A DNA stretch of 51,468 nucleotides from a bacterium (GTDB lineage: Bacteria; Patescibacteriota; Minisyncoccia; Minisyncoccales; RBG-13-42-11), in the NCBI GenBank assembly GCA_030646565.1, contig JAUSLA010000015.1:1-51468 (forward strand), read 5' to 3'. The first letter of the stretch is position 1. Each line of letters starts with the position of its first letter. A program made the position numbers and the translations under genes. Positions 7,066 to 47,549 of the stretch are shown here, piece by piece. The notes under the pieces were generated by a model. It saw only the letters and a list, made by a program, of their open reading frames with translations, did no database searches and was not told where the DNA came from.

Positions 7066-7069
7066 AAAA

Positions 7070-8350
7070 TTATTTTCCTAAGCTATCGACTAACTCTTTT
7101 TCTATTGCCAATAAGCGATTATATTTTGCCATTCTTTCTTTTTGAGTGGGAGCTCCAGCCTTAATAAAATTAGATCCAATACCAACCGCAAAGTCAGCGA
7201 TAAAATCGTCTTTTGTCTCGCCAGATCTATGTGAAACAATAATCTTCCAGCCGTATAATTTGGCTAATTTTGCGGCTGCGATCGCTTCCGAAATAGTTCC
7301 AATCTGATTTGGCTTTATAATTAACGCGTTGCAAATTTTTCTTTGATGAGCAAATTTTATTCTTTCCGGGTTCGTCACCGTTAAGTCATCGCCAACAACT
7401 AATATTTTTAATTTTAGATTTTTAACTTTAGACCTTAAAAACTTCCACCCTTTTACATCCTCTTCGGCAAAAGGATCTTCTATGGCCGTTATCGGATACT
7501 GCTGAAAAATCTCCAGATAAAAACTGAGGAGATCTTTCGAATTCAGAATACTCCCATCAAAATGATATTTTCCCTTTTTAAAAAAGGAATTAGCGGCCGC
7601 ATCAATGATAATTTCCGCCTTGCCCAAAAAACCCACTTTTTCGATCGCTTCCTTTGCTAAACTCAGCGCTTCTTTTGCATTTTTGACGGGAGGAATAAAA
7701 GCGCCTTCCATCCCCTGCTTGCTTCCCAATTGCCCGTATCTTTTTTTTAAAATTTTTCCCAGAGCAGAAAAAACTTTTTTTTCACGGTCAAAGCTTTCTC
7801 TAAAAGATTTTGTCTTGCAAGCAACCATTATCTCTTGGAGAGATAATTTCCCCTTGCCGTGCAACCCGCCTTCCAAAAGCAGAATGCAAGGCCTTGGTAG
7901 GGCTGGTTTTATGCCGGCAATTTTTGAAATCCATTTCCATAGGGGGAATTTTTTAGCTTTGGCTCCGGCTCTGGCAGTCGCTATTGATACTCCTAAAACA
8001 GCGTTTGCCCCCAAGCGGGATTTATTTTTCGTGCCGTCTAACTGAATCAAAGCTTCGTCAACCCTTTTTTGGTCTGATAAGTCTTCCTGTTTCAAAGACG
8101 GCGCGATAATTTTCTCTATATTTTCAATTACTTTTTTAACTCCCCTGCCGTCTTCATCTCTCAATTCTACCGCTTCATATTTTCCCGTAGAAACGCCCGA
8201 AGGCACCGATGCCAAAAATTTTCCAAAATCCGTTTCTAATTCCACCTCCACCGTCGGCATTCCTTTTGAGTCTAAAATTTCCCTGCCTCGTAGTAGAGAA
8301 ATTTTACTGCGGGGCCTGGCTGAAATTTTTTTTATTTTTAAATTATCCAT
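7070..8350 (-). CDS. eno: Enolase
   Basis: The protein has REILDSKGMPTVEVE, SVPSGVSTGKYEA and SHRSGETKDDFIADFAVG. Confidence 0.9.
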   Translation of the reverse strand: MDNLKIKKISARPRSKISLLRGREILDSKGMPTVEVELETDFGKFLASVPSGVSTGKYEAVELRDEDGRGVKKVIENIEKIIAPSLKQEDLSDQKRVDEALIQLDGTKNKSRLGANAVLGVSIATARAGAKAKKFPLWKWISKIAGIKPALPRPCILLLEGGLHGKGKLSLQEIMVACKTKSFRESFDREKKVFSALGKILKKRYGQLGSKQGMEGAFIPPVKNAKEALSLAKEAIEKVGFLGKAEIIIDAAANSFFKKGKYHFDGSILNSKDLLSFYLEIFQQYPITAIEDPFAEEDVKGWKFLRSKVKNLKLKILVVGDDLTVTNPERIKFAHQRKICNALIIKPNQIGTISEAIAAAKLAKLYGWKIIVSHRSGETKDDFIADFAVGIGSNFIKAGAPTQKERMAKYNRLLAIEKELVDSLGK

Positions 8351-9332
8351 TTAGCTTTTGAATGTAAGCGGCTGCGGAAATAGCGGCTTTGGCTCCCTCT
8401 CCTGCAGCGATAACTATCTGGTTATATAAGACATCGTCTACATCACCCGCGGCAAAAAGACCGGCGGTTTTAGTCATACAGGTTCTTGAGTCAACTACAA
8501 TTTCATCTCTCTTATTAAAATCAACCAGCCCTCTGACAAAAGAAGTGGCCGGCTGATAACCAATTTCAACAAAAACGCCTTCCACCGAAAGGTTGATTGT
8601 TTTTTTTGTTTTTCTTTCCTGATAACTTAACGATTCTACAAATTGATCGCCTTGAATTTTTTGCGCAGAAACATTAGTTATTGTTTCAACCTTGCCGCTT
8701 TTTTTAACTAATCCTTGATTTTCAGCGTCGGCTCCAACTTGCGGATTATATTCCAAAATATAAATTTTTTTGGCTATTTTACTTAGAAAAATGGCTGCTT
8801 CAAAACCGGCGTTTCCTCCGCCAACAATTGCCACTGTTTTGTCAAAAAACAAAGGGCCGTCGCATGTGACGCAATAACTCACTCCCTTTCCTAAAAATTC
8901 TTTTTCTCCGGGAACTTCCAAGCGCCTGGGATCAGCTCCCGAAGCAACAATGATTGCTTTTGACTGAAATCGCTGTTTGCTTTTGGTTAAAACCGAGAAA
9001 TTCCTCCCAATTTTTTTTATTTCTTTAGCCTCGTCTCTCTCAATTTCAATTTTCTGTTTTCTTAATTGTTTCTCGAATTTCTGGGTTAGTTCCATGCCGG
9101 ATACTTCTTCAAAACCGGGATAATTTTCAATAACCACTGCTTTTTCTGTTATGTACCCGCCAAAACTTTTAGTTATTAATAACGTATTCAGTCCTTGTCT
9201 TGCTGCGTAAATTCCAGCCGTAATTCCGGCCGGCCCTCCGCCAATAATTATTAAATCATAAACCGAGTCCCGCGAAGCGGGACGAAGGTGGAGAAGAGGA
9301 CGCAGTTCTCTTCGACTCGCTAAGTTACTCAT
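8343..9332 (-). CDS. trxB: Thioredoxin-disulfide reductase
   Basis: The protein has DLIIIGGGPAG, the redox-active CVTCDG, VGGGNAG and FAAGDV. The first ~21 aa are encoded by a family A element. Confidence 0.85.
   Translation of the reverse strand: MSNLASRRELRPLLHLRPASRDSVYDLIIIGGGPAGITAGIYAARQGLNTLLITKSFGGYITEKAVVIENYPGFEEVSGMELTQKFEKQLRKQKIEIERDEAKEIKKIGRNFSVLTKSKQRFQSKAIIVASGADPRRLEVPGEKEFLGKGVSYCVTCDGPLFFDKTVAIVGGGNAGFEAAIFLSKIAKKIYILEYNPQVGADAENQGLVKKSGKVETITNVSAQKIQGDQFVESLSYQERKTKKTINLSVEGVFVEIGYQPATSFVRGLVDFNKRDEIVVDSRTCMTKTAGLFAAGDVDDVLYNQIVIAAGEGAKAAISAAAYIQKLNG
9262..9321 (+). repeat. Family A element inside the trxB 5' coding region
   Basis: The sequence is ACCGAGTCCCGCGAAGCGGGACGAAGGTGGAGAAGAGGACGCAGTTCTCTTCGACTCGCT. 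Confidence 0.85.
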
Positions 9333-10320: not shown

Positions 10321-12054
10321 TTAGGCCTTCCCCGTTTTTCTTCTTAAATAAGCCGGCGTCTCCCAAAATCGTTCTTTTTCAGCTATCTCCCGCTCTATTT
10401 CTTCAATTTCTTTTTTTATCTGAATGGCGTTTTTTCTGATTTTTTCCTCTCCCCCATTTTGAACTAAAACCTGCTTGACTTGAGACAATTTTTCTTCTTC
10501 CGAAAAAATAGGCGCCGTTTCTTTTTCTTTTTCCTGTTTGACAAATTCAATAGCAATCTTTTTTGGTTCTTCCTTTTCAGATTTTTCTGCTTTGCGCCTC
10601 TTTTGCGCATCCGCCGATGAGGAGGATTCTCTAATGATTTTTTTCTTTTCTGGAATCTCCTTTTCTTCTATCGCGCCCTTAACAACTGCTGATATTTTTT
10701 TGTCGAAGAGCTTCGCTCTTCTCCGCTCTTCGCTGCGGCTCGAGCTATTGATTCTTTTTTTATGTACGGGCTGTTTTTTTTCTTCTCCAGTCGGAGAACT
10801 TCGTTCTTCTACACTCTTCGCTGCGGCTCGAGTAAGCGAAGGTTTAAGAAGAGGATATAATCCTCTTCGCCTACCCTTCACTTGCGCTCGGCTAAACAAC
10901 TTCATTCCGCAGCCGTTAGCCAAAAGGGTGGTTTTAATTATTTCTGAATACTTTGGGTTTTGAGAAATTCCAAAAATAATCTTGGCTTCCGGATGAACCA
11001 ATTCGGAAATGGTCTTTGATATTTGACTCACTTCGAAAAGAGAAAGATTTTTTTCTCCCGCAATATTAAACAAAACTCCTTTTGCCCCCCGAATATTGTA
11101 GGAATACAAAGGGGAGGAAAGGACTTTGTCAATCAATTCTTTAATTGAACCTTCTTTTCTCTGTACTTCAGCGGTATTTAAGTATACCAACCGTCCCTGC
11201 CCTTCCAAAATAGTTCTGAAATCGGCAAAATCAATATTAATTAAACCCGGCTCATAAATTGTTTCAATCAAACCGCCCAAACTTTCCGCTAAATTTTTAT
11301 TAATAACCGAAAGGGCTTGTTTCAAAGGAGTATCCTTATCAATAATCTGGAAGACCCTTTCGTTGGGAATAATCGTAATGGCATTGAGAGAATTTTTTAT
11401 TTTCTTTAAAGCGTCTTTGGCAATTTCCATTTTCTTTTCGCCTTCAAATTTGAAAGGCAAAGTAAAAATGCCATACGTGAGATTTCCCAAGCTTTTAGAA
11501 ATTTTAGCAAAAATAGGAGCCGCTCCCGAACCCGCTCCTCCTCCTAAAGAAGCGACTAAAATACATAAATCCTGGCCTTCTAAGAGTTTTTGAATTTTTT
11601 CCTTTGCTTCCAGGGCCGCATCCCTGCCAAAATCAGCATTCATGCCAGTTCCCAATCCATGGGTAAGGTTCTCGCCGAATTGAAAACGCAAAACCTTTTT
11701 CCCCAATGATTTTAAAGCCTGGAGGTCAGTGTTAGCTGCCGCAAAAGAAGCCTTAGACATTCCAGGAGCAATTTCCGATACAATTGAGCCTCCCCCGCCT
11801 CCAATTCCAATCACCCTTATTTTTGTTTTTTTAATTCCCTCGTTCTCAACTTTCGGTTTTTCAATGGCAAAGGACTTTTTTGTCAAAGAGGCCTTCTGCC
11901 GTCGAGTCGAAGACAAGACGAAAGAAGAAAAACTTTTCTTCGCACTCTTCTTCACCTGCCCGAGTCGCAACGAAGGGTGGAGAAGAAGGAATCTTCTTCG
12001 ACTCGCCCCGCTTCGCGGGGCTCGGTTTTTAATTTTTTTCTTAATTTTTCGCAT
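10321..12054 (-). CDS. ftsZ: Cell division GTPase FtsZ with a long repeat-bearing linker
   Basis: The protein has IGIGGGGGS, GLGTGMNADFG and GGGAGSGAAP, plus the C-terminal peptide ETPAYLRRK. A possible alternative TTG start at 11886 lies just downstream of the 5' repeat cluster. Confidence 0.85.
   Translation of the reverse strand: MRKIKKKIKNRAPRSGASRRRFLLLHPSLRLGQVKKSAKKSFSSFVLSSTRRQKASLTKKSFAIEKPKVENEGIKKTKIRVIGIGGGGGSIVSEIAPGMSKASFAAANTDLQALKSLGKKVLRFQFGENLTHGLGTGMNADFGRDAALEAKEKIQKLLEGQDLCILVASLGGGAGSGAAPIFAKISKSLGNLTYGIFTLPFKFEGEKKMEIAKDALKKIKNSLNAITIIPNERVFQIIDKDTPLKQALSVINKNLAESLGGLIETIYEPGLINIDFADFRTILEGQGRLVYLNTAEVQRKEGSIKELIDKVLSSPLYSYNIRGAKGVLFNIAGEKNLSLFEVSQISKTISELVHPEAKIIFGISQNPKYSEIIKTTLLANGCGMKLFSRAQVKGRRRGLYPLLKPSLTRAAAKSVEERSSPTGEEKKQPVHKKRINSSSRSEERRRAKLFDKKISAVVKGAIEEKEIPEKKKIIRESSSSADAQKRRKAEKSEKEEPKKIAIEFVKQEKEKETAPIFSEEEKLSQVKQVLVQNGGEEKIRKNAIQIKKEIEEIEREIAEKERFWETPAYLRRKTGKA
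10702..10893. repeat. Three family A units inside the ftsZ C-terminal linker coding region
   Basis: The units are GTCGAAGAGCTTCGCTCTTCTCCGCTCTTCGCTGCGGCTCGAG at 10702-10746, GTCGGAGAACTTCGTTCTTCTACACTCTTCGCTGCGGCTCGAG at 10790-10832, and ...GCGAAGGTTTAAGAAGAGGATATAATCCTCTTCGCCTAC... at 10833-10893. Confidence 0.75.
11899..12027. repeat. Family A cluster at the ftsZ 5' end
   Basis: The cluster reads CCGTCGAGTCGAAGACAAGACGAAAGAAGAAAAACTTTTCTTCGCACTC...CCGAGTCGCAACGAAGGGTGGAGAAGAAGGAATCTTCTTCGACTCGCCCCGCTTCGCGGGGCTCGG. Confidence 0.8.
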
Positions 12055-15736: not shown

Positions 15737-15749
15737 CAAAAGTTGAAAA

Positions 15750-15950
15750 CCTGCGTCCCGTAAAGCGGGGCGAAGACGATGCGAAGAGATAAATCTCTTA
15801 TCAAGTCCCGCTTTGCGGGACGCAGATGGAAAAGAAGGAAGAAACCTTCTTTGACTCTTAATCTTCGCTCGGTTCTACCTCGCTCAATAGATGAAGCAAC
15901 ATTTCATCGCCTAGGCGGGGCGATGAAGCTATTGCTTCATCTTCCCTTCA
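15750..15950. repeat. Element-only tract of about 4 tandem family A units
   Basis: The tract contains GCGTCCCGTAAAGCGGGGCG, AAGAGATAAATCTCTT, GTCCCGCTTTGCGGGAC, GATGAAGCAACATTTCATCGCCTA and GGCGATGAAGCTATTGCTTCATC. Track ORF 15779..16012 is repeat-derived. Confidence 0.75.
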
Positions 15951-15961
15951 CTTTCAGTAAT

Positions 15962-19585: not shown

Positions 19586-19610
19586 AATTTTTTCGTAACT
19601 TCCGGCTTTT

Positions 19611-19682
19611 GTCGATGAAGTTTGCCTCCTTCGGAGTTTACCTTCATCTTCACCTTCACTTCTGCTTTCGCAGAAGCTCGGT
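19611..19682 (-). repeat. Family A element (reverse orientation)
   Basis: The sequence is GTCGATGAAGTTTGCCTCCTTCGGAGTTTACCTTCATCTTCACCTTCACTTCTGCTTTCGCAGAAGCTCGGT. Confidence 0.8.
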
Positions 19683-19745
19683 AAATAAAAAAGACCGGTT
19701 GGTCTCGTAGATTTTTTAATAGGGCTTTTATGCCTTAAATTTTTT

Positions 19746-19791
19746 AGTCGAAGAACATTTGTTCTTCTCCACCCTTCGCTGCGACTCGGGT
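19746..19791 (-). repeat. Family A element (short hairpin 1 variant)
   Basis: The sequence is AGTCGAAGAACATTTGTTCTTCTCCACCCTTCGCTGCGACTCGGGT. Confidence 0.75.
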
Positions 19792-19872
19792 ATGATAATA
19801 TTCTCTAAAAAATAAAAACTATGAGATTTGACTACAGTGATAGTATATATTAAAACCAATCTTTTGTCAATA

Positions 19873-19970
19873 ACCGAGTCCCGCTTCGCGAAGAATAATT
19901 GTTCTTCTTTACCCTTCGCTTCGCTCGGGTGCGGGATGAATGAAGAAGAAAACGCAGCTTTCTTCGCCGT
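19873..19970. repeat. Composite family A tract
   Basis: The tract reads ACCGAGTCCCGCTTCGCGAAGAATAATTGTTCTTCTTTACCCTTCGCTTCGCTCGGGTGCGGGATGAATGAAGAAGAAAACGCAGCTTTCTTCGCCGT. Confidence 0.7.
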
Positions 19971-20496
19971 AAAAAATAATACATTTCGCATTTTAAAAGG
20001 AGCTGAAACGAATATCTTAAACGATGGTAAGATAGACATTAAAGACGAGGCCTTGAAAAAACTGGATTATGTTATCGCCGGCATTCATTCTTCTTTAAAA
20101 ATGGAAAAATCCAAAATGACGGAAAGAATTATTCGGGCAATGAAAAATCCAAACGTTGATATTATTTCCCATCCGACAGGCCGAATCTTGAAAGCAAGGG
20201 ATGAATATCAAATTGACTTTGACAAGATTTTAAGAGCGGCTAAAGAATACAACGTTATTTTGGAAATAAACGCTTTTCCTGCTAGATTAGATCTTAACGA
20301 CCAGAATATCAGGAGGGCGAAATCAGCTGGAGTAAAAATGGCAATCAATACAGACGCTCATAAAAAAGACCAATTGAGATTTATTGAATTTGGAATAGCT
20401 CAAGCCAGGCGGGGTTGGGCGGAAAAAGAAGACATTATCAATACCCAGCCATTAGAAAAATTATTAGCTGAGTTCCGCTTTGCGGAACGAAAGTGA
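19936..20496 (+). pseudogene. PHP-domain (PolX / histidinol-phosphatase-like) C-terminal fragment
   Basis: The ORF has GAETNIL, VIAGIHSS, IISHPTGR, ILEINA and AINTDAH, but the N-terminal HxH metal motif of the PHP fold is absent. Family A repeats occupy the upstream sequence, and a repeat also supplies the stop codon. Confidence 0.55.
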
Positions 20497-23048: not shown

Positions 23049-23058
23049 GGTTAGCTTA

Positions 23059-23247
23059 TTAGCTTTTTAGCAATTGTTTTATTTTTTTAGCTTCGTTTTT
23101 TGAAACTTCAATTAATTTCCGCCTTTTTCTTATTTTCTTTCCCGATTTTTTTGCCAGAAAATGGTCAAGACCGGTAGATCTTCTTAATATCTTGCCGGTT
23201 TTAGTGAATTTGAAGCGTTTTAAGATTGATTTTCGTATTTTCCCCAT
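23059..23247 (-). CDS. rpmI: 50S ribosomal protein L35
   Basis: This is a 62-aa basic protein containing KRFKFTKTGKILRR, located between infC and rplT. Confidence 0.9.
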   Translation of the reverse strand: MGKIRKSILKRFKFTKTGKILRRSTGLDHFLAKKSGKKIRKRRKLIEVSKNEAKKIKQLLKS

Positions 23248-23816: not shown

Positions 23817-23828
23817 GATTTTCGATTG

Positions 23829-24179
23829 TGGAGATGGCGGGATTTGGACCCGCGTCTGAAGAGTTTGGCTAAAATAATTCTACAAGCTTAGTTTGGTTTA
23901 ATAAAAAACATAGAATTAAAACCAGACAAAACTTCTATATCTTTAATCCATCCATTTTCAGCGGTTTTTCTGGATTAAGAAAAGCCGCTTATCTCGCTGA
24001 TTTTTGACACTCATTTCCGCATAGCGAGAATCATCGGAACTGAATGGTCCAGCTACTTAAGCGTAAGCTAGGACGGGTTGTTTGAATAAGTTGGCACTTA
24101 TCCGATTGTTAGTTTTTACAAGAGCTAACAACTTGGCTTGCGTATTTCAGTTCATTCTTCATCGAAGCCATTCATCCCC
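23829..24179 (-). ncRNA. ssrA: tmRNA (SsrA)
   Basis: On the minus strand the 5' end GGGGATGAATGGCTTCGA pairs with the 3' end CATCTCC-A, giving the G3:U Ala-identity pair. The T-arm is GCGGG-TCCAAAT-CCCGC. The tag frame after GTAAAAACT...GGATAAGT reads GCC AAC TTA TTC AAA CAA CCC GTC CTA GCT TAC GCT TAA (ANLFKQPVLAYA). The gene lies next to smpB. Confidence 0.85.
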
Positions 24180-26587: not shown

Positions 26588-27190
26588 ATGCTAAAGTTAA
26601 AAAATCGATATTTTCTTTTGCGCCACGGCCAGTCCTTTGTAAATTTAAAAGGGCTTGTTTCTTGCTGGCCGGAAAAGATTTATTCTCCCTTAACCAAAAG
26701 AGGAGTAGAACAGGTTAAAATAACCGCAAAAAAACTGAAAAATAAGAAGATTGATTTAATCTTTTCTTCAGATATGCTAAGAACGAAACAAACCGCTCAA
26801 ATCGCCGCAAAAGCAGTGGGCTTAAAAATAAAATTTGATAAAAGATTAAGAGATATTTATATGGGAGTTTTTAACGAAAAGCCTATAAAAGAAGCAGGAA
26901 AATTCTGGGCAATTGAAGGGAAAAAGCTTTCTGCTCTGGAATATTATAAAAGGAGGTTTATAATTAATCCCCCCAAGGGAGAAAACTACATTGACGTGGA
27001 AAGGAGAATGTTGAGTTTTATTAAGGATGTGGAAAAAAAATATCAAGGAAAAAATATCTTGCTTGTTGGCCATAAGCGTCCCTTTAGCCTGCTCGAGAAA
27101 ATTATTTTAAATTTGGGCGTTAAAAAGTTTGTTGAGGAAATAATTCAGGAAAAAGAGATGAAAAACGGAGAGTTGCGCGAGATTCGGTAG
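26588..27190 (+). CDS. Histidine phosphatase (phosphoglycerate mutase) family protein
   Basis: The protein has YFLLRHGQS and a later LLVGHKRP motif. Confidence 0.75.
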   Translation: MLKLKNRYFLLRHGQSFVNLKGLVSCWPEKIYSPLTKRGVEQVKITAKKLKNKKIDLIFSSDMLRTKQTAQIAAKAVGLKIKFDKRLRDIYMGVFNEKPIKEAGKFWAIEGKKLSALEYYKRRFIINPPKGENYIDVERRMLSFIKDVEKKYQGKNILLVGHKRPFSLLEKIILNLGVKKFVEEIIQEKEMKNGELREIR

Positions 27191-27246
27191 GCGATGAGGA
27201 CTGCGTCCTCATCTTCAATCTTCGCTTTCGTTATGCGAAAGCTTGA
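27189..27246 (-). repeat. Family A element filling the spacer upstream of ileS
   Basis: The sequence is AGGCGATGAGGACTGCGTCCTCATCTTCAATCTTCGCTTTCGTTATGCGAAAGCTTGA. Confidence 0.8.
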
Positions 27247-27249
27247 TTT

Positions 27250-30200
27250 ATGGATTTAGATTTCCCGAAAATAGAAACAAAAATATTAAAATTCTGGCAA
27301 GAAAAAAAGATTTTCGAGAAGCTTCGCAAAAAAAATCAAGGCCAAAAACGCTGGTCATTTTTAGATGGGCCGATAACGGCAAACAATCCAATGGGCGTCC
27401 ATCACGCTTGGGGGAGAACATATAAAGATTTATTCCAAAGGTATAAGGCAATGCAAGGTTATGATCAAAGGTTTCAAAACGGTTTTGATTGCCAGGGCCT
27501 TTGGGTTGAGGTGGAAGTAGAAAAAGAGCTTGGTTTTAAAACAAAAAAAGATATTGAAAAATACGGCATAGCCGAATTTATTGAAAAATGCAAAGAAAGA
27601 GTGAGAAAATACTCAAAAATTCAAACTGCGCAATCTCTTCGGCTTGGCCAGTGGATGGATTGGGAAAATTCTTATTATACGATGTCTGACGAAAACAACT
27701 ATGCTATATGGCAGTTTTTAAAAAAATGTTGGCAGGGAGGCCAGGTTCGCAAGGGTCGAGACGCTATTCCTTGGTGCCCTAGATGCGAAACCGCGATTTC
27801 CCAGCACGAGATTTTAACAGAAGATTATAAAGAGGTGACGCACGAATCTATTTATCTTGAATTTCCAATCGCGGGCAGGCAAAATGAATTTTTACTCGTT
27901 TGGACAACAACTCCTTGGACTATTCCAGCCAACATCGCCGTGGCGGTGGATGAGAAATTGGATTATTCATTAGTTGAAGGCAATTCAGGCGATTTTTTCT
28001 GGCTCGCCAAAGATTTGATAAGGAATGTTTTTAAAGTCGAAGAACTACGTTCTTCTTCATCTTCGTTTTCGCCATGCGAAAACTCGATAAAAAAATATAA
28101 AAAAATTATAAAAACTGTAAAAGGTAAAGAGCTTATTGGTTTAAAATACCGGGGACCGTTTGATAATTTAGACGCAGTGCGGAAAGTTGCTGATGAGAAC
28201 CAAGACAAATTCCATTTAATTATCGCAACGGATGAGCGTATAATGCCAATATCAATTGATGAGGGTACGGGTTTGGTGCATATCGCAGTAAGCGCCGGCG
28301 AGGAAGATTTTAAACTGGGTCAAAAATATGACTTGCCGATAATTCCCGTTATTGCCGATAATGCTGATTATCTTCCCGGGTTTGGTGATTTTTCCGGGAA
28401 AAACGCTAAAAATAATCCCCGTTTGATCCTTGATTATCTGATGGAAAAGGAAAAAACAGGCGAAGATTGGGTTTTTAAAATAGCTCCCTACGTTCATCGT
28501 TATCCTGTTTGTTGGCGATGCAAAACAGAACTTGTTTGGAAGGTTGCCGATGAGTGGTATATTTCTATGGATAAATTGAGGGGTCAATTGGCTAAGGCCG
28601 CCAAAAAAATTAAATGGATTCCATCTTTTGGATTAGACAGAGAGCTTGATTGGCTGAAAAATATGCATGATTGGCTAATTTCTAAAAAGCGTTATTGGGG
28701 GCTGGCTTTACCGATTTTTGAGTGTAAAAAATGCAATAATTTTGAAGTTATTGGAAGTAAAGAAGAGTTGGAAGCGAAGGCGGTTTCCGGATGGGAGCAA
28801 TTTAAAAATCATTCTCCTCACAGACCATGGATAGATGAAGTAAAAATCAAGTGTTCAAAATGCGGCGCAATCGTTTCTCGTATTCCAGACGTCGGCAATC
28901 CCTGGCTTGACGCCGGGATTGTGCCATTTTCTACGATGGGATATTTTTCCGATAAAAGATATTGGCAAAAATGGTTTCCAGCTGATTTTATTTGCGAATC
29001 ATTTCCCGGCCAGTTTAAGAATTGGTTTTATTCTCTGATTGTAATGAGCGCGGTTTTAGAGGGCGTGGGACCCGCAAAAACAATTTTTGGCCATGCTATG
29101 GTGCGCGATGAAAAGGGAGAGGAAATGCATAAATCCAAAGGAAACGCTATATGGTTTGACGAAGCTGTGGAGAAAATTGGAGCAGAGCCTATGCGTTGGA
29201 TGTATGCAAAATCAAATCCGGCGCATAACTTGCTTTTTGGGTATAAATCTGCAGAAGAAATTAAAAGAAAATTATTAACCCTCTGGAATAATTTTATCTT
29301 TTTTAAAACTTATTCAAAAACCGAGTCCCTCCTATATCGGGACGAGGTGAAGATGAGTGCGAAGAAAAGTTTTTCTTCTTTCGTCTCGTCTTCGACTCGA
29401 CGGCCGAAGTCCTCATCGCCTTCAAGTAATATTTTAGACAAATGGATTGTGTCTTGCTTGAACAACTTGATTGAAAAAGTTACCAAAAATTTGAACGAAT
29501 ATAACGCCGCAGTAGCTGTTGCGATAGAAGATTTTTTTATAGAAGATCTCTCCTTGTGGTATATCCGGAGGTCTCGTAAAAGATTCCAAAAACCGAAAAA
29601 TGATAAAGAAAAAAAAGAGGCGGTTCAAACTCTTCGCTACGTTCTTTTAAATCTAATAAAGCTGATTGCCCCTATGATGCCATTTTTATCCGAAGAAATT
29701 TATCAAAATTTAAAAACAAAGAAATTACCAGAATCCGTCCATCTTTGCGATTGGCCAGAAGCTGATAAAAAATTCATTAATGAAAAATTAGAAAAGCAGA
29801 TGCAGGAAGTTAGAGAAATTGCCGCAAAAGCTTTGGCCGAAAGAGCCAAGACAGGAATAAAAGTCAGACAGCCGCTCGCTTCTCTTAAGATAAAATCTTT
29901 GCCTACCGGCAGACGGGTCAAAAATGATAGAGAATTACTGGAGTTGATAAAAGAAGAAGTTAATATTAAAGAGATAATCTTTGATTCTAAGATAAAAAAC
30001 GAAGTGGAGCTGGATACAAAAATTACTCCAGAACTAAAAGAAGAAGGGATTATTAGGGAGATTATCCGCAACATCCAGGACTTAAGAAAAAAGGCAGGTT
30101 TAAAGCCGGAAAACAAGATTTTAGTCGTTTATTCGGCAGGTCCTAAACTAAACAAGATTTTGGAAAGGAATAAAAAATTTCTTTTGGCGGAAGCTAAAGT

Positions 30201-31434: not shown

Positions 31435-33102
31435 ATGTTCAATAAACTTAACCTTTCCATTGTTATTTTGGCCTTAGCCACCGGTATTTTGGGTTTTTAT
31501 TATTATCAGAAAAATATCTACTCAAAGGAAACGCTTAAATTGGAAATTTTGAGCCAGGATTCGGTCGACCTCCTTGAAGAAGTTGAATATATTGTTAAAT
31601 ATAAAAACAACGGAAACGCCCGGTTGGAAGAGCCGGAACTTACTTTTGAATTTCCGGAATACTCCATTCCAGCAGGAGAGAATTCTTTAAGGGTCGTTAA
31701 AAAAACCGAAGATCTGGGAGGGCCTATTTATCCCGGCCAGGAAAAAATATTCAGGTTCAAAGCAAGACTTTTAGGCAAGGAGAATGAGGCAAAAATTGCC
31801 AAGGCCACTTTGTCTTACCAACCCAAAAATTTGAAAGCCCGTTATGAATCCGCTACCAGTTTTATTACCGTAATTAAAAAAGTGCCCCTTACTTTTGAAT
31901 TTGACCTGCCCTCCCAAAGCGAATCAGGAAAAGATATCAGATTCAAATTAAATTATTTTTCCAATACAGATTATCCTATTCAAAACTTAAGAATTACAGT
32001 TGAATATCCTTCAGATTTTGAGTTTATTGAATCAACGCCAAAGTCCCTGGAAAAAATAGAGTGGGATTTAGGTTCTTTGAACAAAGCAGAAGGCGGCCGG
32101 ATTGAAATTGCGGGAAAATTAAGGGGCAATATTAACGACGAGAAAATCTTTCAAGCGAAAATAGGAATCTGGCAGGGCGGAGAATTTATTTTATTGAAAA
32201 CAGCGCAAAAGGGAGTGGAGATAGCCAAGCCCGACATTAATATTACCCAGCAAATCAACGGCAGCCCCGATTATACGGCTTCGCCCGGAGATCTTCTGCA
32301 TTATGAAATTTCTTTCAAGAACTTTGGAGAAGTGCCATTGACCAATCTTTTTTTGATAAACAGATTAGACGGGGCAGCATTTGATTTTCAGACGCTCAAA
32401 TCCAATTCCGGAGATTTTGAACCCGGAGACAATTCAGTTGTCTTTGACTGGAAACGGGTTCAAGAGCTTCAATTTTTAAATGTCGGAGGAGAAGGAAAGG
32501 TTGAATTTTGGATAAAATTGAAAGAGGACTTCGGAGTTCTTAACAATACCGCAATTCAGAATAAAGTTTATCTTTCCCAGGCAAAAGAAGAGTTTATTAA
32601 TAAGGTCAATACAAAACTGGTCATAGACCAGAAGGGATATTTCCAGGATGAAATTTTTGGTAATTCAGGCCCTATACCCCCTAAAGTCGGAGAGAGCACC
32701 ACTTATACAATAACCTGGCAAGCGAAAAATTATTATAATAATACAAAAAACATTAAAGTAAAAGCTGTTTTACCGAGAGAAGTGAAGCTTACCGGCAAAA
32801 TTTTTCCGGAAGGAGAAGCTGGTAAATTCGCTTTTGATTCCCTTTCGCGTGAACTAGTTTGGGAGGTTGGCGAAATGTCTGCGGGCCAGGGAGTCCAAAA
32901 CTCTCCGCTAAATATCTCTTTTCAGGTTGTGTTTATCCCGACTGCTTCGCAAATAGGAATGACAGCAGAACTCATCGGCCAAGCCAGTATTACGGGAGAG
33001 GACCAATGGACAAAGGACTCTATTTTAGCTCTTGATTCCGCTATCACCACCGATTTGCCGGACGACGACACTGTTTCCGAACAGCAAGGCATCGTCCAGT
33101 AG
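31435..33102 (+). CDS. Membrane-anchored surface protein with repeated beta-sandwich (DUF11/CARDB-like) regions
   Basis: An N-terminal transmembrane helix is followed by repeated segments of the kind Y.I.Y.N.G...L.N. I made no specific family call. Confidence 0.5.
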   Translation: MFNKLNLSIVILALATGILGFYYYQKNIYSKETLKLEILSQDSVDLLEEVEYIVKYKNNGNARLEEPELTFEFPEYSIPAGENSLRVVKKTEDLGGPIYPGQEKIFRFKARLLGKENEAKIAKATLSYQPKNLKARYESATSFITVIKKVPLTFEFDLPSQSESGKDIRFKLNYFSNTDYPIQNLRITVEYPSDFEFIESTPKSLEKIEWDLGSLNKAEGGRIEIAGKLRGNINDEKIFQAKIGIWQGGEFILLKTAQKGVEIAKPDINITQQINGSPDYTASPGDLLHYEISFKNFGEVPLTNLFLINRLDGAAFDFQTLKSNSGDFEPGDNSVVFDWKRVQELQFLNVGGEGKVEFWIKLKEDFGVLNNTAIQNKVYLSQAKEEFINKVNTKLVIDQKGYFQDEIFGNSGPIPPKVGESTTYTITWQAKNYYNNTKNIKVKAVLPREVKLTGKIFPEGEAGKFAFDSLSRELVWEVGEMSAGQGVQNSPLNISFQVVFIPTASQIGMTAELIGQASITGEDQWTKDSILALDSAITTDLPDDDTVSEQQGIVQ

Positions 33103-33164
33103 CGAGTCCCATTTATGGGACGAAGCTGAAGATGAGTCCCGCAGAGCGGGACTCATCGCCTACC
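33102..33164 (+). repeat. Family A element with a hairpin 1-like sequence nested in hairpin 2
   Basis: The sequence is GCGAGTCCCATTTATGGGACGAAGCTGAAGATGAGTCCCGCAGAGCGGGACTCATCGCCTACC. Confidence 0.85.
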
Positions 33165-39398: not shown

Positions 39399-40907
39399 AT
39401 GAAAAATAAATTTTATATTACAACCACTCTTCCTTATGTAAACGCAGAGCCCCATATCGGTTTTTCTTTAGAAATTGTTCAGGCCGATGTTATTGCCAGA
39501 TATCAGAGGGCTTTGGGCAAAGATGTTTTTTTTAACACCGGAACCGACGAACACGGGCTGAAAATTTACCGCAAAGCATTAGAAGAAAATAAAAACCCCC
39601 AAGATTACGTTGACGAATACGCCGCAAAATACGAGTGCCTCAAAAGGGCTTTGAATTTAAGCTACACCAATTTTATCCGCACCACCGACGCCCATCACGT
39701 TTTAGCTGCCCAGAAATTTTGGATACGTTGTCTGAAAAACGGAGATATCTATAAAAAAAACTATAAAATCAAATACTGCGTTGGCTGCGAACTGGAAAAA
39801 ACCGATTCAGAATTAGCAAAGGGAAAATGTCCCATTCATCCTAATCTGTCCTTAGAGCAAATAGAGGAGGAGAATTATTTTTTTAGATTTTCCAAATACC
39901 GACAGCCACTCCTTGATTTTTACAAGAAATACCCTGACTTTGTAATACCGGTGTCCAGATTTGCTGAAGTGAAAAGTTTTATTAGACAAGGGCTTCGGGA
40001 TTTTAGCGTTTCGCGACTTAAAGAAAAAATGCCTTGGGGTGTTCCGGTTCCAGGAGACGATTCTCAAGTTTTTTTTGTTTGGTTTGACGCTTTGATCAAT
40101 TATATTTCCGCTTTGGGTTGGCCCGAGCAAAAGAAGAATTTTCGGGCATATTGGGGAAATAAAAGAAACCCTAACGCCCTTCAAGTTGCCGGTAAAGACA
40201 ATTTGCGCCAGCAATCAGCTATATGGCAAGCCATGCTTATGTCTGCCGGCCTTCCTAATTCAAGGAAAATTATTATACACGGATTTATTACCGTTGCCGG
40301 CCAGAAAATGTCCAAAAGTTTGGGAAATGTGGTTTCTCCCTTTGAATTGGTCAAAAAATACGGGACTGACCCTGTAAGATATTTTCTTTTGCGGGAAATT
40401 CCACCGACCGAGGACGGCGATTTTACCTATGAGAAGTTTGAATCAAGATATAATTCTGATTTGGCCAATGGATTAGGAAATTTGGCGGCGAGAGTAATAA
40501 CGCTTGCAAAAATTTCTAATACCGAGCTTCCACTTGTGGAAGCGAAGGTGAAGAAGAGAACGGAGTTCTCTTCGCCTTTCAAATTTCTAATTTCCAAACA
40601 AATCCAAAATCCAAAATTCAAAACAACAATAAACAAAACTTGGGGAAAATATCACAAGGCTTTAGGCGAATTTAAGTTTAATGAGGCGTTAGTTGCAGTT
40701 TGGAATTTAATTGGTTTTTGCGACCGTTACATTGAAAAAGAAAAACCATGGGAAAAAAGCCAAAAACAAAAAGAAGTTATTGGCGATTTATTATTAGCTA
40801 TTAATGAAATAGCGAAACTTTTAGAGCCATTTTTGCCCGAGACATCAGAAAAAATCTTTCAGCAATTAAAAAATAAAAAAAGCAAATCTCTCTTTCCCAG
40901 AATCTAA
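39399..40907 (+). CDS. metG: Methionine--tRNA ligase
   Basis: The protein has TTLPYVNAEPHIGF (HIGH region) and KMSKSLGN. It carries one in-frame family A insertion. Confidence 0.9.
   Translation: MKNKFYITTTLPYVNAEPHIGFSLEIVQADVIARYQRALGKDVFFNTGTDEHGLKIYRKALEENKNPQDYVDEYAAKYECLKRALNLSYTNFIRTTDAHHVLAAQKFWIRCLKNGDIYKKNYKIKYCVGCELEKTDSELAKGKCPIHPNLSLEQIEEENYFFRFSKYRQPLLDFYKKYPDFVIPVSRFAEVKSFIRQGLRDFSVSRLKEKMPWGVPVPGDDSQVFFVWFDALINYISALGWPEQKKNFRAYWGNKRNPNALQVAGKDNLRQQSAIWQAMLMSAGLPNSRKIIIHGFITVAGQKMSKSLGNVVSPFELVKKYGTDPVRYFLLREIPPTEDGDFTYEKFESRYNSDLANGLGNLAARVITLAKISNTELPLVEAKVKKRTEFSSPFKFLISKQIQNPKFKTTINKTWGKYHKALGEFKFNEALVAVWNLIGFCDRYIEKEKPWEKSQKQKEVIGDLLLAINEIAKLLEPFLPETSEKIFQQLKNKKSKSLFPRI
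40521..40577 (+). repeat. Family A element in frame in metG (19 codons)
   Basis: ACCGAGCTTCCACTTGTGGAAGCGAAGGTGAAGAAGAGAACGGAGTTCTCTTCGCCT is translated as TELPLVEAKVKKRTEFSSP. Confidence 0.85.
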
Positions 40908-41916: not shown

Positions 41917-42818
41917 TTGACACTCACTCGCATTTAAATTTCAACGCCTACAAAAATGATGCAGATGAAGTGATAAAAAGAGCACTAGACAATGATATCT
42001 GGATGCTCAATGTCGGCTCGCAATTTTCCACCTCAAAAAGGGCGGTTGAAATAGCCGAAAAATATCCAAAAGGAGTGTATGCCGCCGTCGGCCTTCACCC
42101 AATACATTTAACTGAAGGAATTTTTAAAACAAAAATTGATACAGAAGAAATTGAATTTAAAAAAGCTGAAGAAGATTTTTATTACGAAAAATATAAAGAA
42201 TTAGCCCGATCTAAAAAAGTTGTCGCTATCGGCGAGGTTGGTTTAGATTATTATTATCGGCCAAAAACAAAAACAAAACTTGAACAGTTCAAAAACAAAC
42301 AAAAAGAAGCGCTTTTGGCGCAGTTGGCTTTAGCCAAAGAGCTGAATTTGCCAGTAATTTTCCATTGCCGTTCAGCACATAAGGATTTGATAGAAATCCT
42401 CAACTATAAAACAAGAACTACAAACTATAAACCGAATGGAGTAGTTCATTGTTTTACCGGAAATTTGGAAGAGGCAAAACAATATCTGGAATTGGGGCTT
42501 TATCTTGGTTTGAACGGGATAATTTTTAAGCTGGAGGTCGCTGAGACTTCGTCTCATCTCTCATCTCGTGCGGCTTCGCCGCACTCGGTTTTAGACGAAG
42601 TTATCAAAAATATTCCTTTAAATAGAATTTTAGTTGAAACAGATTGCCCCTATTTGACGCCGCCACCTTTTGAAGGACGAAATGAACCTTTGTATATTAA
42701 ATCAGTTGTCCAGCGAATAGCTGAAATTAAAAATATGAACTACGAGGAAATAGCTAAAATTACTACTGAAAATGCCAAAAAATTATTTACCGAGTTCCGT
42801 GAAGCGGAACGAAGGTGA
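41910..42818 (+). CDS. tatD: TatD family metal-dependent hydrolase
   Basis: The protein has MLIDTHSHLNF, GEVGLDYY, FHCR, HCFTG and VETDCPYLTP. It contains one internal family A insert, and a second copy supplies the last 9 codons and the stop. Confidence 0.9.
   Translation: MLIDTHSHLNFNAYKNDADEVIKRALDNDIWMLNVGSQFSTSKRAVEIAEKYPKGVYAAVGLHPIHLTEGIFKTKIDTEEIEFKKAEEDFYYEKYKELARSKKVVAIGEVGLDYYYRPKTKTKLEQFKNKQKEALLAQLALAKELNLPVIFHCRSAHKDLIEILNYKTRTTNYKPNGVVHCFTGNLEEAKQYLELGLYLGLNGIIFKLEVAETSSHLSSRAASPHSVLDEVIKNIPLNRILVETDCPYLTPPPFEGRNEPLYIKSVVQRIAEIKNMNYEEIAKITTENAKKLFTEFREAERR
42534..42590 (-). repeat. Family A element in frame in tatD (19 codons)
   Basis: GAGGTCGCTGAGACTTCGTCTCATCTCTCATCTCGTGCGGCTTCGCCGCACTCGGTT is translated as EVAETSSHLSSRAASPHSV. 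Confidence 0.8.
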
Positions 42819-42844
42819 AGAAGAGGACGCAGTCCTCTTCGCCT
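42789..42844 (+). repeat. Family A element (near-consensus) spanning the tatD stop
   Basis: The sequence is ACCGAGTTCCGTGAAGCGGAACGAAGGTGAAGAAGAGGACGCAGTCCTCTTCGCCT. The stop TGA at 42816-42818 lies in the linker. Confidence 0.9.
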
Positions 42845-42867
42845 TTCAAAAATTTAAATCAAAATTT

Positions 42868-44781: not shown

Positions 44782-44784
44782 AAT

Positions 44785-44942
44785 ACCGAGTTCGCCAAAG
44801 GTGGACGAAGGTGACTCAAAGAAGATAAATCTTCTTTTCCACCTGCGTCCCACTTTGTGGGACTTGGTAGATGAGGAAGTAGTCCTCATCGCTTACTTGA
44901 GCGAAGCGAAGAGTGAAGATGAGGAAGTAGTCCTCATCGCTT
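44785..44942. repeat. Element-only tract of about 3 family A units upstream of leuS
   Basis: The tract reads ACCGAGTTCGCCAAAGGTGGACGAAGGTGACTCAAAGAAGATAAATCTTCTTTTCCACCTGCGTCCCACTTTGTGGGACTTGGTAGATGAGGAAGTAGTCCTCATCGCTTA...GAAGATGAGGAAGTAGTCCTCATCGCTTA. Confidence 0.8.
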
Positions 44943-44976
44943 AGACAAAATCGGGTTTTTGGGATATGATATTTTT

Positions 44977-45063: not shown

Positions 45064-47549
45064 AATATGAACCGCAGAAAATAGAACCTAAATGGCAAAA
45101 GTATTGGGAGGAACAGGGATATTATCTGGCAGAGGATTTTTCAAAAAAGCCAAAAAAGTATATTTTATTTGAATTTCCTTATCCTTCGGGGGAAGGTCTT
45201 CACGTTGGCCACGCTAGGAGTTATGTTGCCATAGACGCCCTTTCCAGAAAAAAAAGAATGGAAGGATATAATGTTTTATTCCCAATTGGCTGGGATGCTT
45301 TTGGTTTGCCGACAGAGAATTACGCCATCAAAACCGGTATTCATCCCCAAAAAGCAACCGAGCAAAACATCGCTAATTTTAAAAGACAAATGAAAAACTT
45401 GGGCCTTTCTTTTGATTGGTCAAGAGAAATTAATACCACCGACCAAAAATACTACAAATGGACTCAATGGATTTTTCTTAAACTCTACGAGAGGGACTTA
45501 GCTTACCAAGCGGAAATTCCGGTGAATTGGTGTCCTTCCTGTAAAATTGGCTTGGCTAATGAAGAAGTTGTTGGCGCAGGATGCGAGAGATGTGGGACTC
45601 CTGTTGAAAAAAAGATTTTAAAGCAGTGGATGCTTAAAATTACCTCGTACGCAGACAGATTAATAGACGACTTGGAGATGGTTGATTATCCAGAGAGAGT
45701 GAAGTCCCAGCAAAAAAACTGGATCGGTAAAAGCTATGGCGTAGAGATTGATTTTAAGACAACAGGGGCGGAAGAAATAGGCGAAGAGGACAAGTCCTCT
45801 TCTTCACCTTCGTCCCGCAAGCGGGACTCGGTCATTAAGGTTTTTACCACCAGAGCAGACACTCTTTTTGGAGTAACGGCAGTTGTTTTAGCTCCCGAAC
45901 ACGAAATTATTTCAAAATTAAAATCTCGAATTTTAAATCTGAAAGAGGTGCAAGATTACATTAATCAAGCGGTAAAGAGGAGTGAATTTGAGAGGACAGA
46001 ATTGGCGAAAGAAAAAACGGGAGTTGAGTTAAAAGGAGTTAAAGCGATAAATCCGGCTAACGGAGAAGAGGTGCCGGTCTGGGTAGGAGATTATGTGGTG
46101 GCTGTTTATGGCGGCGGAGCGGTTATGGTAGTTCCTGCTCACGATTTTAGGGATTACGATTTTGCCAAAAAATACGGCCTGGAGATAAGAGAAGTTGTTT
46201 CGGTTTGCCCGCCGAAGCCCGAAGGGCGAAGGTGGGGCGGAGATATTTCGAGGGAAGCTTTTGTTGGCTACGGCGTTTTAATTAACTCGGGCCAATTTAA
46301 TGGTTTAACTTCTGAAAAAGCAATTGAAGAAATCACCGCCTGGCTTGAAGTAAGGAATGAAAGTAAAAAAACAATAAAATACAAATTAAGGGACTGGGTT
46401 TTTTCCAGGCAGCATTACTGGGGAGAGCCGATTCCAATTATTCATTGTCCAAAATGCGGGGCAGTGCCGGTGTTAGAAAAAGATTTACCGATAGAGCTTC
46501 CTTATGTTGAAAAATATCAGCCAACAGGAACGGGTGAATCGCCTTTGGCAGTGATTTCAGAATGGGTTAACGTTGCTTGTCCTGAATGCGGCAGCCCGGC
46601 TAAAAGGGAAACAGACACTATGCCCAACTGGGCTGGTTCTAACTGGTATTATATAAGATATTGCGACCCGGATAATAGCAAAGAAATAGCCGATTCTCAA
46701 AAATTGAAATATTGGCTTCCGGTTGACTGGTATAACGGCGGAATGGAGCACACCACTTTGCATCTTTTATATTCTCGTTTTATATATAAATTTCTTTTTG
46801 ATATCAGGGTTGTTTTTCAGCCAGAGCCCTACAAAAAAAGAACTTCACACGGCATGGTCTTGGCCCAAGACGGCAGAAAAATGTCAAAGTCTTTCGGAAA
46901 TGTTATTAATCCTGACGATATTGTCCGGCAATATGGAGCCGACACTCTGCGACTTTATGAAATGTTTATGGGGCCTTTCGGGGAAACAATTGCCTGGAAC
47001 AGCCAAGGATTGAAAGGGTGCCATCGTTTTTTGGAAAAAGTTTGGAGATTAGCTTTAGAATCATCTGCAGAAAATAAAACCAGCGCTAATATATTAAGGG
47101 CCCTGCACAAATTGAATAAAAAAGTGGAAGAGGACTTAGAGGAAACAAAATTTAACACGATAATTGCATCTTTTATGGAGTTTGTTAACCTGGCCCTGGA
47201 GAATGAAAAAGAAATTAGTAGAGAGGCAATTGAGCGATTCTTAATTTTACTTTCTCCTTTTGCTCCCCATATTTCAGAAGAGTTGTGGGAGAAGATTGGG
47301 AAAAATGGCAGCATTCAAAAGCAAGAATGGCCAAAGTACGATCCGTTATTAGTTAAAGAAGAGATTGTTAATTTGATTATTCAGATCAATGGAAAAGTCC
47401 GGGACAAGATTGAGGTTGACCCGGCTCTTTCCGAAGAAAAAGCCAAAGAGATTGCGTTTGCGCGAGAAAAAATTAAAAAATGGATAGATGGCAAGGAAAT
47501 AAAAAAAATAATTTTCATTAAAGATAAGATCATAAATATCGTCGTATAG
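45060..47549 (+). CDS. leuS: Leucine--tRNA ligase
   Basis: The protein has EFPYPSGEGLHVGHARSY (HIGH region), KMSKSFGN, and the editing domain with VFTTRADT. Confidence 0.95.
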   Translation: MKYEPQKIEPKWQKYWEEQGYYLAEDFSKKPKKYILFEFPYPSGEGLHVGHARSYVAIDALSRKKRMEGYNVLFPIGWDAFGLPTENYAIKTGIHPQKATEQNIANFKRQMKNLGLSFDWSREINTTDQKYYKWTQWIFLKLYERDLAYQAEIPVNWCPSCKIGLANEEVVGAGCERCGTPVEKKILKQWMLKITSYADRLIDDLEMVDYPERVKSQQKNWIGKSYGVEIDFKTTGAEEIGEEDKSSSSPSSRKRDSVIKVFTTRADTLFGVTAVVLAPEHEIISKLKSRILNLKEVQDYINQAVKRSEFERTELAKEKTGVELKGVKAINPANGEEVPVWVGDYVVAVYGGGAVMVVPAHDFRDYDFAKKYGLEIREVVSVCPPKPEGRRWGGDISREAFVGYGVLINSGQFNGLTSEKAIEEITAWLEVRNESKKTIKYKLRDWVFSRQHYWGEPIPIIHCPKCGAVPVLEKDLPIELPYVEKYQPTGTGESPLAVISEWVNVACPECGSPAKRETDTMPNWAGSNWYYIRYCDPDNSKEIADSQKLKYWLPVDWYNGGMEHTTLHLLYSRFIYKFLFDIRVVFQPEPYKKRTSHGMVLAQDGRKMSKSFGNVINPDDIVRQYGADTLRLYEMFMGPFGETIAWNSQGLKGCHRFLEKVWRLALESSAENKTSANILRALHKLNKKVEEDLEETKFNTIIASFMEFVNLALENEKEISREAIERFLILLSPFAPHISEELWEKIGKNGSIQKQEWPKYDPLLVKEEIVNLIIQINGKVRDKIEVDPALSEEKAKEIAFAREKIKKWIDGKEIKKIIFIKDKIINIVV
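45779..45832 (-). repeat. Family A element in frame in leuS (18 codons)
   Basis: AGGCGAAGAGGACAAGTCCTCTTCTTCACCTTCGTCCCGCAAGCGGGACTCGGT is translated as GEEDKSSSSPSSRKRDSV. Confidence 0.85.

Follow-up and report, generated by a model that had tools for sequence, protein, structure and literature searches.

The closest described counterparts of the repeats analyzed here are the Rickettsia palindromic elements (RPE), reportedly introduced by Ogata et al. in 2000, and sequences of the repetitive extragenic palindromic (REP) class with the related bacterial interspersed mosaic elements (BIME). A further parallel is provided by the double-hairpin elements and GC clusters of fungal mitochondria, G+C-richer mini-elements that are scattered through an A+T-rich, compact genome, including its coding regions, and some of which are bypassed by the ribosome. 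Intragenic copies are documented for both REPs and RPEs, including copies in tRNA synthetase genes and at N-termini, and those of REPs encode about 20-80 amino acids (aa) (PMC3733652). Here we describe repeats of this kind in an entire 51,468-bp contig (hereafter, the window; G+C content 39%) of a metagenome-assembled genome (MAG) from the Parcubacteria/Patescibacteria, the nearest named relatives of which are Nealsonbacteria and Staskawiczbacteria. The original prediction for this DNA was that two unrelated essential genes, ileS and ftsZ, carry in the same frame a 49-nucleotide (nt) block that differs by a single mismatch, as a result of recent spread or of gene conversion. The present analysis indicates that this 49-mer is probably the conserved interior of a long form, about 102 nt in length, of a family of double-hairpin palindromic repeats, non-autonomous mobile DNA of the REP/RPE kind. 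This family appears to have proliferated in a Nealsonbacteria-like parcubacterial genome, and the copies in ileS and ftsZ would be separate arrivals.

The 49-mer and the double-hairpin repeat family

Site reading and an approximate pattern search agree with the predicted identity: the ileS copy matches the reverse complement of the ftsZ-region copy at 48 of 49 positions, the sole difference being C/T (coordinates of all features are given in Table 1). With up to 3 mismatches allowed, the 49-mer pattern occurs exactly twice in the window and not once in 100 dinucleotide-preserving shuffles, and a repeat search of the window widens the common block to 70 nt at 94% identity (11888-11957 and 29345-29414). 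In the maximal open reading frames (ORFs) of ileS and ftsZ, the 49-mer translates as SAKKSFSSFV(S/L)SSTRR; all six frames of the 49-mer are open, so that the shared frame of the two copies, taken alone, has a chance expectation of 1 in 6.

The 25-nt core has 13 further exact matches in species-representative genomes, nearly all of them in the same long-form context: 11 in Ca. Nealsonbacteria LacPavin_0920_SED4_MAG_36_17 (hereafter, LacPavin) and 2 in the complete genome CP179888.1 (Ca. Nealsonbacteria ER9H13parc1). A metagenome scan with the same core yields 89 stretches (loci L016-L095) with about 82 copies. The consensus of the 77 metagenome copies with full flanks is GCGAAGGTGAAGAAGAG-TGCGAAGAAAAGTTTTTCTTCTTTCGTCTCGTCTTCGACTCGACGG-ACGAAGTCCTCTTCGCCT, and the ileS 49-mer is equal to this consensus. 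Conservation reaches 80-100% from GGTGAAGAAGAG to CTCTTCGCC, that is, between the arms of the second hairpin of the repeat unit, and decays in the region of the first hairpin and beyond. Spread of the module at the nucleotide level, as opposed to convergent protein evolution, is thus borne out, because most copies of the 49-mer sequence are non-coding and lie on either strand. The notion of a special event involving two genes, in contrast, is not sustained: the 49-mer is the consensus of a widespread subfamily with copies in other genomes.

The canonical unit of the family comprises 55-62 nt in the order ACCGAG, stem S1 (7 bp with a 3-nt loop, typically GTCCCGC nnn GCGGGAC), CGAAGGTGAA, stem S2 (9 bp with a 3-nt loop, typically GAAGAGGAC gca GTCCTCTTC) and GCCT; the top-scoring reference unit reads ACCGAG-TTCCGT-gaa-GCGGAA-CGAAGGTGAA-GAAGAGGAC-gca-GTCCTCTTC-GCCT. 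On folding, canonical units form two DNA hairpins, with z of about -4. In an alignment of 11 units, 97.7% of the stem cells are paired, compared with about 50% in a control with slid partner columns, and double (compensatory) changes are seen in 8 of the 16 stem pairs. A covariance model (R1) built on this alignment and run with filters off identifies about 37 full-length units in the window (E<0.01); the 37 units cover 2,122 nt, which amounts to 4.1% of the window at a density of 0.72 per kb. Units are depleted from coding DNA (14 of 37 midpoints are coding, against a coding density of 86%; p = 1e-11), 14 of the 27 spacers of at least 40 nt hold units, and the two orientations relative to transcription are about equally frequent. 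Two units are present in 17.8 kb of a syntenic sibling contig with an 81% identical IleRS (L001), and one in 22.9 kb of a contig with a 65% identical IleRS (L002). The curated models of Rfam 15, applied to the whole window at gathering score, match none of the units; the sole match (RF00023, 132.7 bits) is a tmRNA gene (23826-24179, minus strand) that adjoins smpB-syntenic genes.

In the long form, the 49-mer lies between the S2 arms of a 55-62-nt unit. The copy in ileS is complete, with the layout ACCGAG, S1, CGAGGTGAA, left S2 arm GATGAG, 49-mer, right S2 arm CCTCATC and GCCT, an architecture that is common to the 77 environmental copies. The two S2 arms resemble short inverted repeats able to bracket cargo, of which the 49-mer is an example. 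The unit upstream of glyS carries an S1-like hairpin in the S2 interior, the place of which is taken by the 49-mer long form at the orthologous site in LacPavin (contig L007), and longer stem-loop cargo is found within S2 at 1936-2010 and 19609-19685. The 49-mer itself is a diverged unit that is nested, in the opposite orientation, in the S2 loop of the long form, as indicated by opposite-strand matches of the covariance model: 13-14 bits in the window (13.7 bits, E 0.06, for the ileS 49-mer) and 17-22 bits (E from 1e-4 to 6e-3) for equivalent foreign 49-mers.

The likeness of these repeats to RPE is considerable. In both cases, short palindromic repeats in a small genome occupy spacers and, in frame, unrelated and often essential genes, including those for translation enzymes, and are tolerated in surface loops and termini, with some copies translated at N-termini. 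The characteristic RPE feature, an in-frame palindromic repeat in ORFs of unrelated function, seems to recur in the window, where 12 units reside in six proteins with intact ORFs. Unlike RPE, however, the unit is 55-62 nt long (compared with about 100-150 for RPE-1) and consists of two hairpins with conserved linkers and nested cargo in the second hairpin; the host belongs to the phylum Patescibacteria, not to the Alphaproteobacteria, and the sequences are unrelated as far as can be judged, so that the likeness is one of working rather than of membership. The resemblance to REP/BIME of the GTAG and CGTC superfamilies (Di Nocera et al. 2013, PMC3733652) consists in high-copy hairpins that are mostly intergenic, lie near ORF ends, sometimes provide stop codons, and occur as singles, head-to-head dimers and clusters; REPs of the CGTC superfamily also lack a dedicated transposase (PMC3733652). 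The present unit differs from these in being a fixed pair of two different hairpins, with no fixed GTAG/CGTC head and no CCA tail. The CGTC REPs are defined by a CGTC (or TGTC/CCTC) tetranucleotide at one end of the palindrome and have a stem of 8-9 bp that begins with two A/T pairs, a loop of 4-5 nt and an unpaired tail of about CCA (PMC3733652). On the reverse strand, S1 (CGTCCCGC...GCGGGAC) starts with CGTC in 7 of the 11 reference units and with CGTT or CGCT in the other 4; CGTC is not a fixed head, since its fourth base occupies the first position of the stem and covaries. The geometry is different as well: S1 is a G+C-rich stem of 7 bp, S2 has 9 bp, both loops are of 3 nt, and the tails are ACCGAG and GCCT. 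The GTAG REPs and REPINs have a GTAG head and go together with a gene for a REP-associated tyrosine transposase (RAYT) of the IS200/IS605-like type; the head is missing from the consensus, and no Y1 transposase domain was detected in the 40 window ORFs scanned.

[quoted passage not shown] However, the present unit begins with ACCGAGT... and ends with ...TTCGCCT, which do not form a reverse-complementary pair; inverted repeats are confined to the internal S2 arms around the cargo, and at the one clean site any target-site duplication spans at most 1 nt within an A-run. Membership in the CGTC REPs, the GTAG REPs or the MITEs is rejected on these defining features, and a CRISPR-like array is rejected because the spacing of the units is irregular and follows gene boundaries. 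The fungal mitochondrial elements, for their part, are organellar and unrelated in sequence, and the conservation of frame in the repeats described here argues for translation. In the searchable literature, no earlier account of repeats of this kind in Patescibacteria came to light. They constitute a new family of the known REP/RPE-like kind, some properties of which are unusual, namely, the nested cargo, the cross-lineage identity, the recurrent insertions in FtsZ tails and the single-frame bias.

Table 1. Repeat units, 49-mer copies and principal host genes in the window
Feature	Position	Strand	Basis
Reference unit, top-scoring canonical	42786..42847	+	covariance model, 84 bits; DNA fold z = -4.0
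ileS, host gene, 1018 aa	27250..30306	+	Pfam, homologues
Complete long-form unit in ileS (site 2), 102 nt = 34 codons, TESLLYRDEVKMSAKKSFSSFVSSSTRRPKSSSP	29320..29421	+	sequence, 11-homologue alignment
49-mer, ileS copy; interior (cargo) of the long-form unit	29355..29403	+	covariance-model match 29354-29404, minus strand
Second, canonical unit in ileS (site 1), 54 nt = 18 codons, read VEELRSSSSSFSPCENSI	28035..28088	-	covariance model, 62.2 bits
Intergenic unit between the His-phosphatase gene and ileS	27186..27250	-	covariance model, spacer comparison
ftsZ, maximal ORF, 577 codons	10321..12054	-	Pfam Tubulin + FtsZ_C
Compound element in the ftsZ 5' tail, ~144 nt, ~48 codons	11882..12026	-	sequence, covariance model
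49-mer, ftsZ copy	11899..11947	-	site reading, pattern search, 49/49 to CP179888.1
Three units in the FtsZ C-terminal linker	10698-10747; 10786-10835; 10824-10875	-; -; +	covariance model
Unit in the N-terminus of a TrxB-like reductase (gene on minus strand)	9259..9320	+	covariance model, 79 bits
Unit that falls between the catalytic and the anticodon-binding domain of MetRS, TELPLVEAKVKKRTEFSSP	40518..40580	+	covariance model, Pfam
Unit in a TatD-family hydrolase, EVAETSSHLSSRAAS	42533..42592	-	covariance model, 35.1 bits
Unit in the LeuRS editing domain, GEEDKSSSSPSSRKRDSV	45776..45835	-	covariance model, 75.4 bits
Unit upstream of glyS with S1-like hairpin cargo in the S2 interior	33098..33164	+	covariance model

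Copies inside conserved proteins

Compared with 11 homologues, the IleRS encoded in the window has two private inserts. At site 1, nucleotide alignment with the empty site of L001 reveals a clean insertion of 54 nt (DNA fold z = -4.0), the filled site reading GTTTTTAAA[54 nt]AAAAAAATAT and the empty one GTTTTTAAAAAAGAATAT, with at most 1 nt possibly duplicated, within an A-run; relative to the Thermus thermophilus IleRS structure (1ILE), the insert falls in a gap in the CP1/editing region. The long form at site 2 replaces an unrecognisable 14-codon linker, with a net gain of 66 nt over L001, and maps on 1ILE to the variable linker between the catalytic and anticodon-binding domains. This copy is absent from all 11 aligned homologues, including the one that is 81% identical, and must be translated. 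The AlphaFold2 model of IleRS obtained from a 12-sequence alignment is poor, with a mean predicted local distance difference test score (pLDDT) of 57.7 and a predicted template modelling score (pTM) of 0.36; in this low-quality model, both inserts (residues 263-281 and 692-721) have pLDDT below 50 between better-predicted flanks. A further unit occupies the spacer in front of ileS, where it provides the TAG stop codon of the upstream His-phosphatase gene (27190) and ends 3 nt before the ileS ATG; the unit is absent in L001, where stop and start overlap. In L002 (GCA_043814215.1), a cassette resembling a diversity-generating retroelement (4711-9251; bAvd, an RVT_1 reverse transcriptase, then a 1015-aa protein) is located between argS and the His-phosphatase/ileS pair; it is absent from the window and L001. 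The IleRS in the syntenic place of LacPavin (L007 38-1816) has no insert at site 2; it is 39.5% identical to the window IleRS, compared with 53-65% for the neighbor proteins, and may be a different IleRS type or the result of gene replacement.

The maximal ORF of ftsZ harbors in its 5' tail a compound element built from an S1 module (ACCGAG-CCCCGC-gaa-GCGGGG), a unit in inverted orientation and the 49-mer-bearing half of a long form. Within this ORF, which opens at ATG 12054, the 49-mer is coding, but it lies 5' of the gene in the NCBI annotation, in which a 521-aa FtsZ starts from a TTG (11886-11884) in the last bases of the element. Among 108 FtsZ homologues, the median number of residues before GIGGGG is 36, and the proteins start with M-x-[KR]-K-x-K-K; the maximal ORF in the window starts with MRKIKKKIKN and, when the ~48-codon element is subtracted, has a tail of ~34 residues. 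In CP179888.1, too, the ftsZ frame runs open from MARKKQSKKSK to the core by way of a similar compound element. The tail length in homologues, the Lys-rich start and the open frame of CP179888.1 favor the upstream ATG: position 12054 is likely to be the true start, the TTG was probably mis-called, and the odds moderately favor translation of the ftsZ copy of the 49-mer. The original claim that both copies are in frame therefore holds for ileS, and the location at the FtsZ N-terminus is probable rather than proven.

The C-terminal linker of FtsZ contains three further units, and these blocks are absent from the FtsZ of contig L015. The FtsZ cores are 81% identical between the window and L015, 90% between CP179888 and the environmental contig L095, and 72% between the window and CP179888. 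Among these four proteins, the N-tail compound element is present, with the same architecture, only in the window and CP179888; it is missing from the 81%-identical FtsZ of L015, and L095 has a long form in the C-terminal linker, not in the N-tail. On this pattern, two independent gains of the N-tail element would be the simplest reading. The FtsZ proteins of L035 (2231-4135; JABUBO010002921.1) and L012 (3100-4962; CP179888.1) have 99% identical cores, and a 14-residue indel (...KPVAPLPVIASQLL...) sets their C-terminal linkers apart; this is strain-level variation in length within the disordered region where repeats also reside.

Altogether, 12 units are located fully inside conserved proteins, with six hosts: IleRS (two sites), FtsZ (both tails), MetRS, LeuRS, TatD and the TrxB-like reductase. 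All 12 keep the frame and are stop-free, which suggests that they are translated rather than removed or bypassed; we reject RNA-level removal and ribosomal bypass because frame keeping and the lack of stops in 12 of 12 units would then be unnecessary. The TrxB-like reductase reads MSNLAS[RRELRPLLHLRPASRDS]VYDLIIIGGG, compared with a homologue that begins MGKIYDLIIIGGG, and has no other in-frame ATG, GTG or TTG start. The remaining units correspond to gaps of 19 aa in MetRS (against L002 MetRS), 15 aa in TatD (against 1J6O) and 18 aa in LeuRS (against 1H3N).

The long form has five open frames out of six, and all five internal coding long forms (in ileS, in the N-tails of two ftsZ genes, in gatB of L028 and in the C-linker of the L095 ftsZ) share one orientation and frame, KKSAKKSFSSFVSSSTRR; the probability of such agreement by chance is (1/5)^4 = 0.0016. 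The simplest cause of this bias is the purging of hydrophobic frames such as ECEEKFFFFRLVF and TKEEKLFFALFF. Among about 82 environmental copies, 2 are deep inside ORFs, so that the insertion in ileS is a rare survivor. A profile search of 5.8 billion proteins with the element-encoded peptide retrieved only two tiny ORFs and missed the window's own IleRS, probably owing to low-complexity filtering. The environmental GatB (L028 10084-11679, minus strand) carries the long form TELPFTEAKVKKSAKKSFSSFVSSSTRRTKFSSPS in the GatB_N region and the canonical unit TERSEVKKRAKPSSPA before the Yqey domain, and PBP2 of L014 has an internal unit, EEDLSSSSPFAAARV.

Mobility and alternative explanations

Filled and empty versions of the same spacer are found in relatives for the His-phosphatase/ileS and M16/AI-2E gene pairs, and many other orthologous spacers are empty in relatives; with neither target-site duplication nor terminal inverted repeats as a guide, it is this distribution that points to mobility. 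Under the scenario that we favor, copies would land at many places and those that break genes would be purged, with survivors left in spacers or, provided that the frame is kept and the frame read is stop-free and hydrophilic, in tolerant protein loops and tails. The copies in ileS and ftsZ would then have arrived separately, as members of a subfamily that is young or highly conserved, with no exchange between the genes. As to the chemistry of transposition, our guess is that a single-stranded hairpin could serve as the substrate of a trans-acting HUH/tyrosine-type enzyme or of replication/repair; the lack of terminal inverted repeats and target duplication would fit a duplication-free, hairpin-recognising insertion of the IS200/IS605 or RAYT type, as well as repair or replication.

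Several observations weigh against mobility as the whole explanation. Pfam scans of the 40 window ORFs detected no transposase or RAYT-like gene, and clustering of 570 ORFs beside 95 foreign copies revealed no recurrent neighbor other than housekeeping genes (ArgRS, SmpB, IleRS, FtsZ, His-phosphatase and others). At the sole clean site, site 1 of ileS, no target-site duplication is apparent, and the unit as a whole lacks flanking terminal inverted repeats. Between the window and L001 (PHP/NUDIX spacer), as between the window and LacPavin (upstream of glyS), the stems of orthologous units diverge through compensatory changes, which could indicate constraint at the level of the host. The long form is 94-100% identical between genomes with proteins that are 40-76% identical (in the comparison of LacPavin with the window, 94-98% for the 49-mer and 40-65% for the proteins). 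The two ftsZ N-tail elements are identical at 85 of 87 nt, at 71% identity of the flanking cores and with four-fold sites saturated at 33%, and the adjoining hairpin stems show compensatory changes between the window and CP179888. Such conservation exceeds that expected from simple decay of selfish DNA; the long form would be either young and moving, possibly between lineages, or strongly constrained at the nucleotide level.

Constraint of this kind, together with the covariation in the stems and the location of units right at stop and start codons (five end 2-4 nt before an ATG), could be taken to indicate that the units are host-functional structured DNA or RNA motifs at gene boundaries, such as mRNA stabilisers, processing or termination sites, or protein-binding sites, maintained by purifying selection, the copies inside genes being tolerated by-products. 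This explanation, although compatible with mobility, appears unlikely given that both orientations to transcription are similarly frequent, leaving no single RNA sense; that an orthologous unit in L001 has decayed, with broken stems; that the density of units differs about 6-17 fold between related genomes; and that empty orthologous spacers are common and no Rfam model matches. A somewhat unlikely but still appreciable possibility is that the ~82-nt core, comprising the S2 arms and the 49-mer, is either a mini-element that spreads horizontally, with the hairpin loop of resident units as its target, or a nucleic-acid motif that is extremely constrained and that a conserved factor of Nealsonbacteria-like bacteria of the candidate phyla radiation (CPR) recognises. 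If so, this would explain the cross-genome identity, the two arrivals in ftsZ 5' tails and the compensatory-only change in the neighboring stems.

The near-identity of the two window copies, which extends to 66 of 70 positions over the wider block, is also to be expected if ileS and ftsZ had undergone direct gene conversion (as envisaged in the original prediction) or ectopic recombination, but this route is rejected on the identity matrix and is extremely improbable. Each copy resembles foreign copies as closely as it resembles its partner: the ftsZ 49-mer is identical (49/49) to both copies in CP179888.1, the genome of another species; the ileS 49-mer matches many LacPavin copies at 48/49, as it does the ftsZ copy; and the ileS 70-mer is closer to a LacPavin copy (67/70; L007:4872) than to the ftsZ copy. 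Furthermore, the similarity between ileS and ftsZ ends at the borders of the element itself. Near-identity is a property of the subfamily, and so direct conversion is not indicated. The use of the same frame in all five internal long forms might be thought to reflect selection for a Lys/Ser-rich peptide, KKSAKKSFSSFVSSSTRR, as a functional protein tag, with the nucleotide identity secondary; this is very unlikely, as non-coding DNA or gene edges hold about 95% of the copies, with both strands represented, synonymous positions share in the identity, the host proteins have no relation to one another, the insertions occupy disordered loops or tails, and the purging of hydrophobic frames accounts for the bias. 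Finally, the window is a contig of a MAG and assemblers may be misled by repeats, but the probability of misjoining is negligible: ORFs are intact and in frame through 12 units, and the same architecture recurs in CP179888.1, which is an independent complete genome, as well as in dozens of contigs from different metagenome samples. The reading that we retain as the most likely is mobile DNA of the REP/RPE kind.

Units at gene boundaries and implications for Patescibacteria

Five units end 2-4 nt before the downstream ATG (at 16294, 18236, 23246, 27250 and 37086), the mRNA reading ...GCGGGACTCGGTnnATG; at this distance, any Shine-Dalgarno-like sequence would fall in an arm of the S1 hairpin. 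Besides the TAG upstream of ileS, units supply the stop codons of upstream genes as TGA within GGTGAAG at 20496 and 42818. In three places (44782-44945, 15747-15961 and 19609-19972), 3-4 units in both orientations overlap or interleave to form clusters with larger palindromes, similar to BIME mosaics. A short rpmI (L35) gene at about 23055-23246 (minus strand) was missed by the ORF list, which starts at 80 aa. The beginning of the contig encodes a RhuM/TnsA-like-N protein (311-1054), an NYN-domain protein (1197-1727) and a PIF1-like helicase (1944-3389), which may represent a mobile or defence islet; units flank the start of the helicase gene (1873-2010).

The genomes of CPR/Patescibacteria are regarded as highly streamlined, and here about 4% of 51 kb consists of a single repeat family. 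Judging from the reading frames, six conserved proteins, three of which are aminoacyl-tRNA synthetases, appear to carry translated copies, and essential proteins acquire new disordered linker segments from the family. Gene calling and the comparison of protein lengths in such MAGs are affected, as with the probably mis-called ftsZ start and with ORF ends that run into units, and metagenome assemblies may be broken or confused by the repeats. Conserved across lineages to a very high degree, the long form provides a concrete handle on the mobility and exchange of DNA among uncultivated episymbionts.

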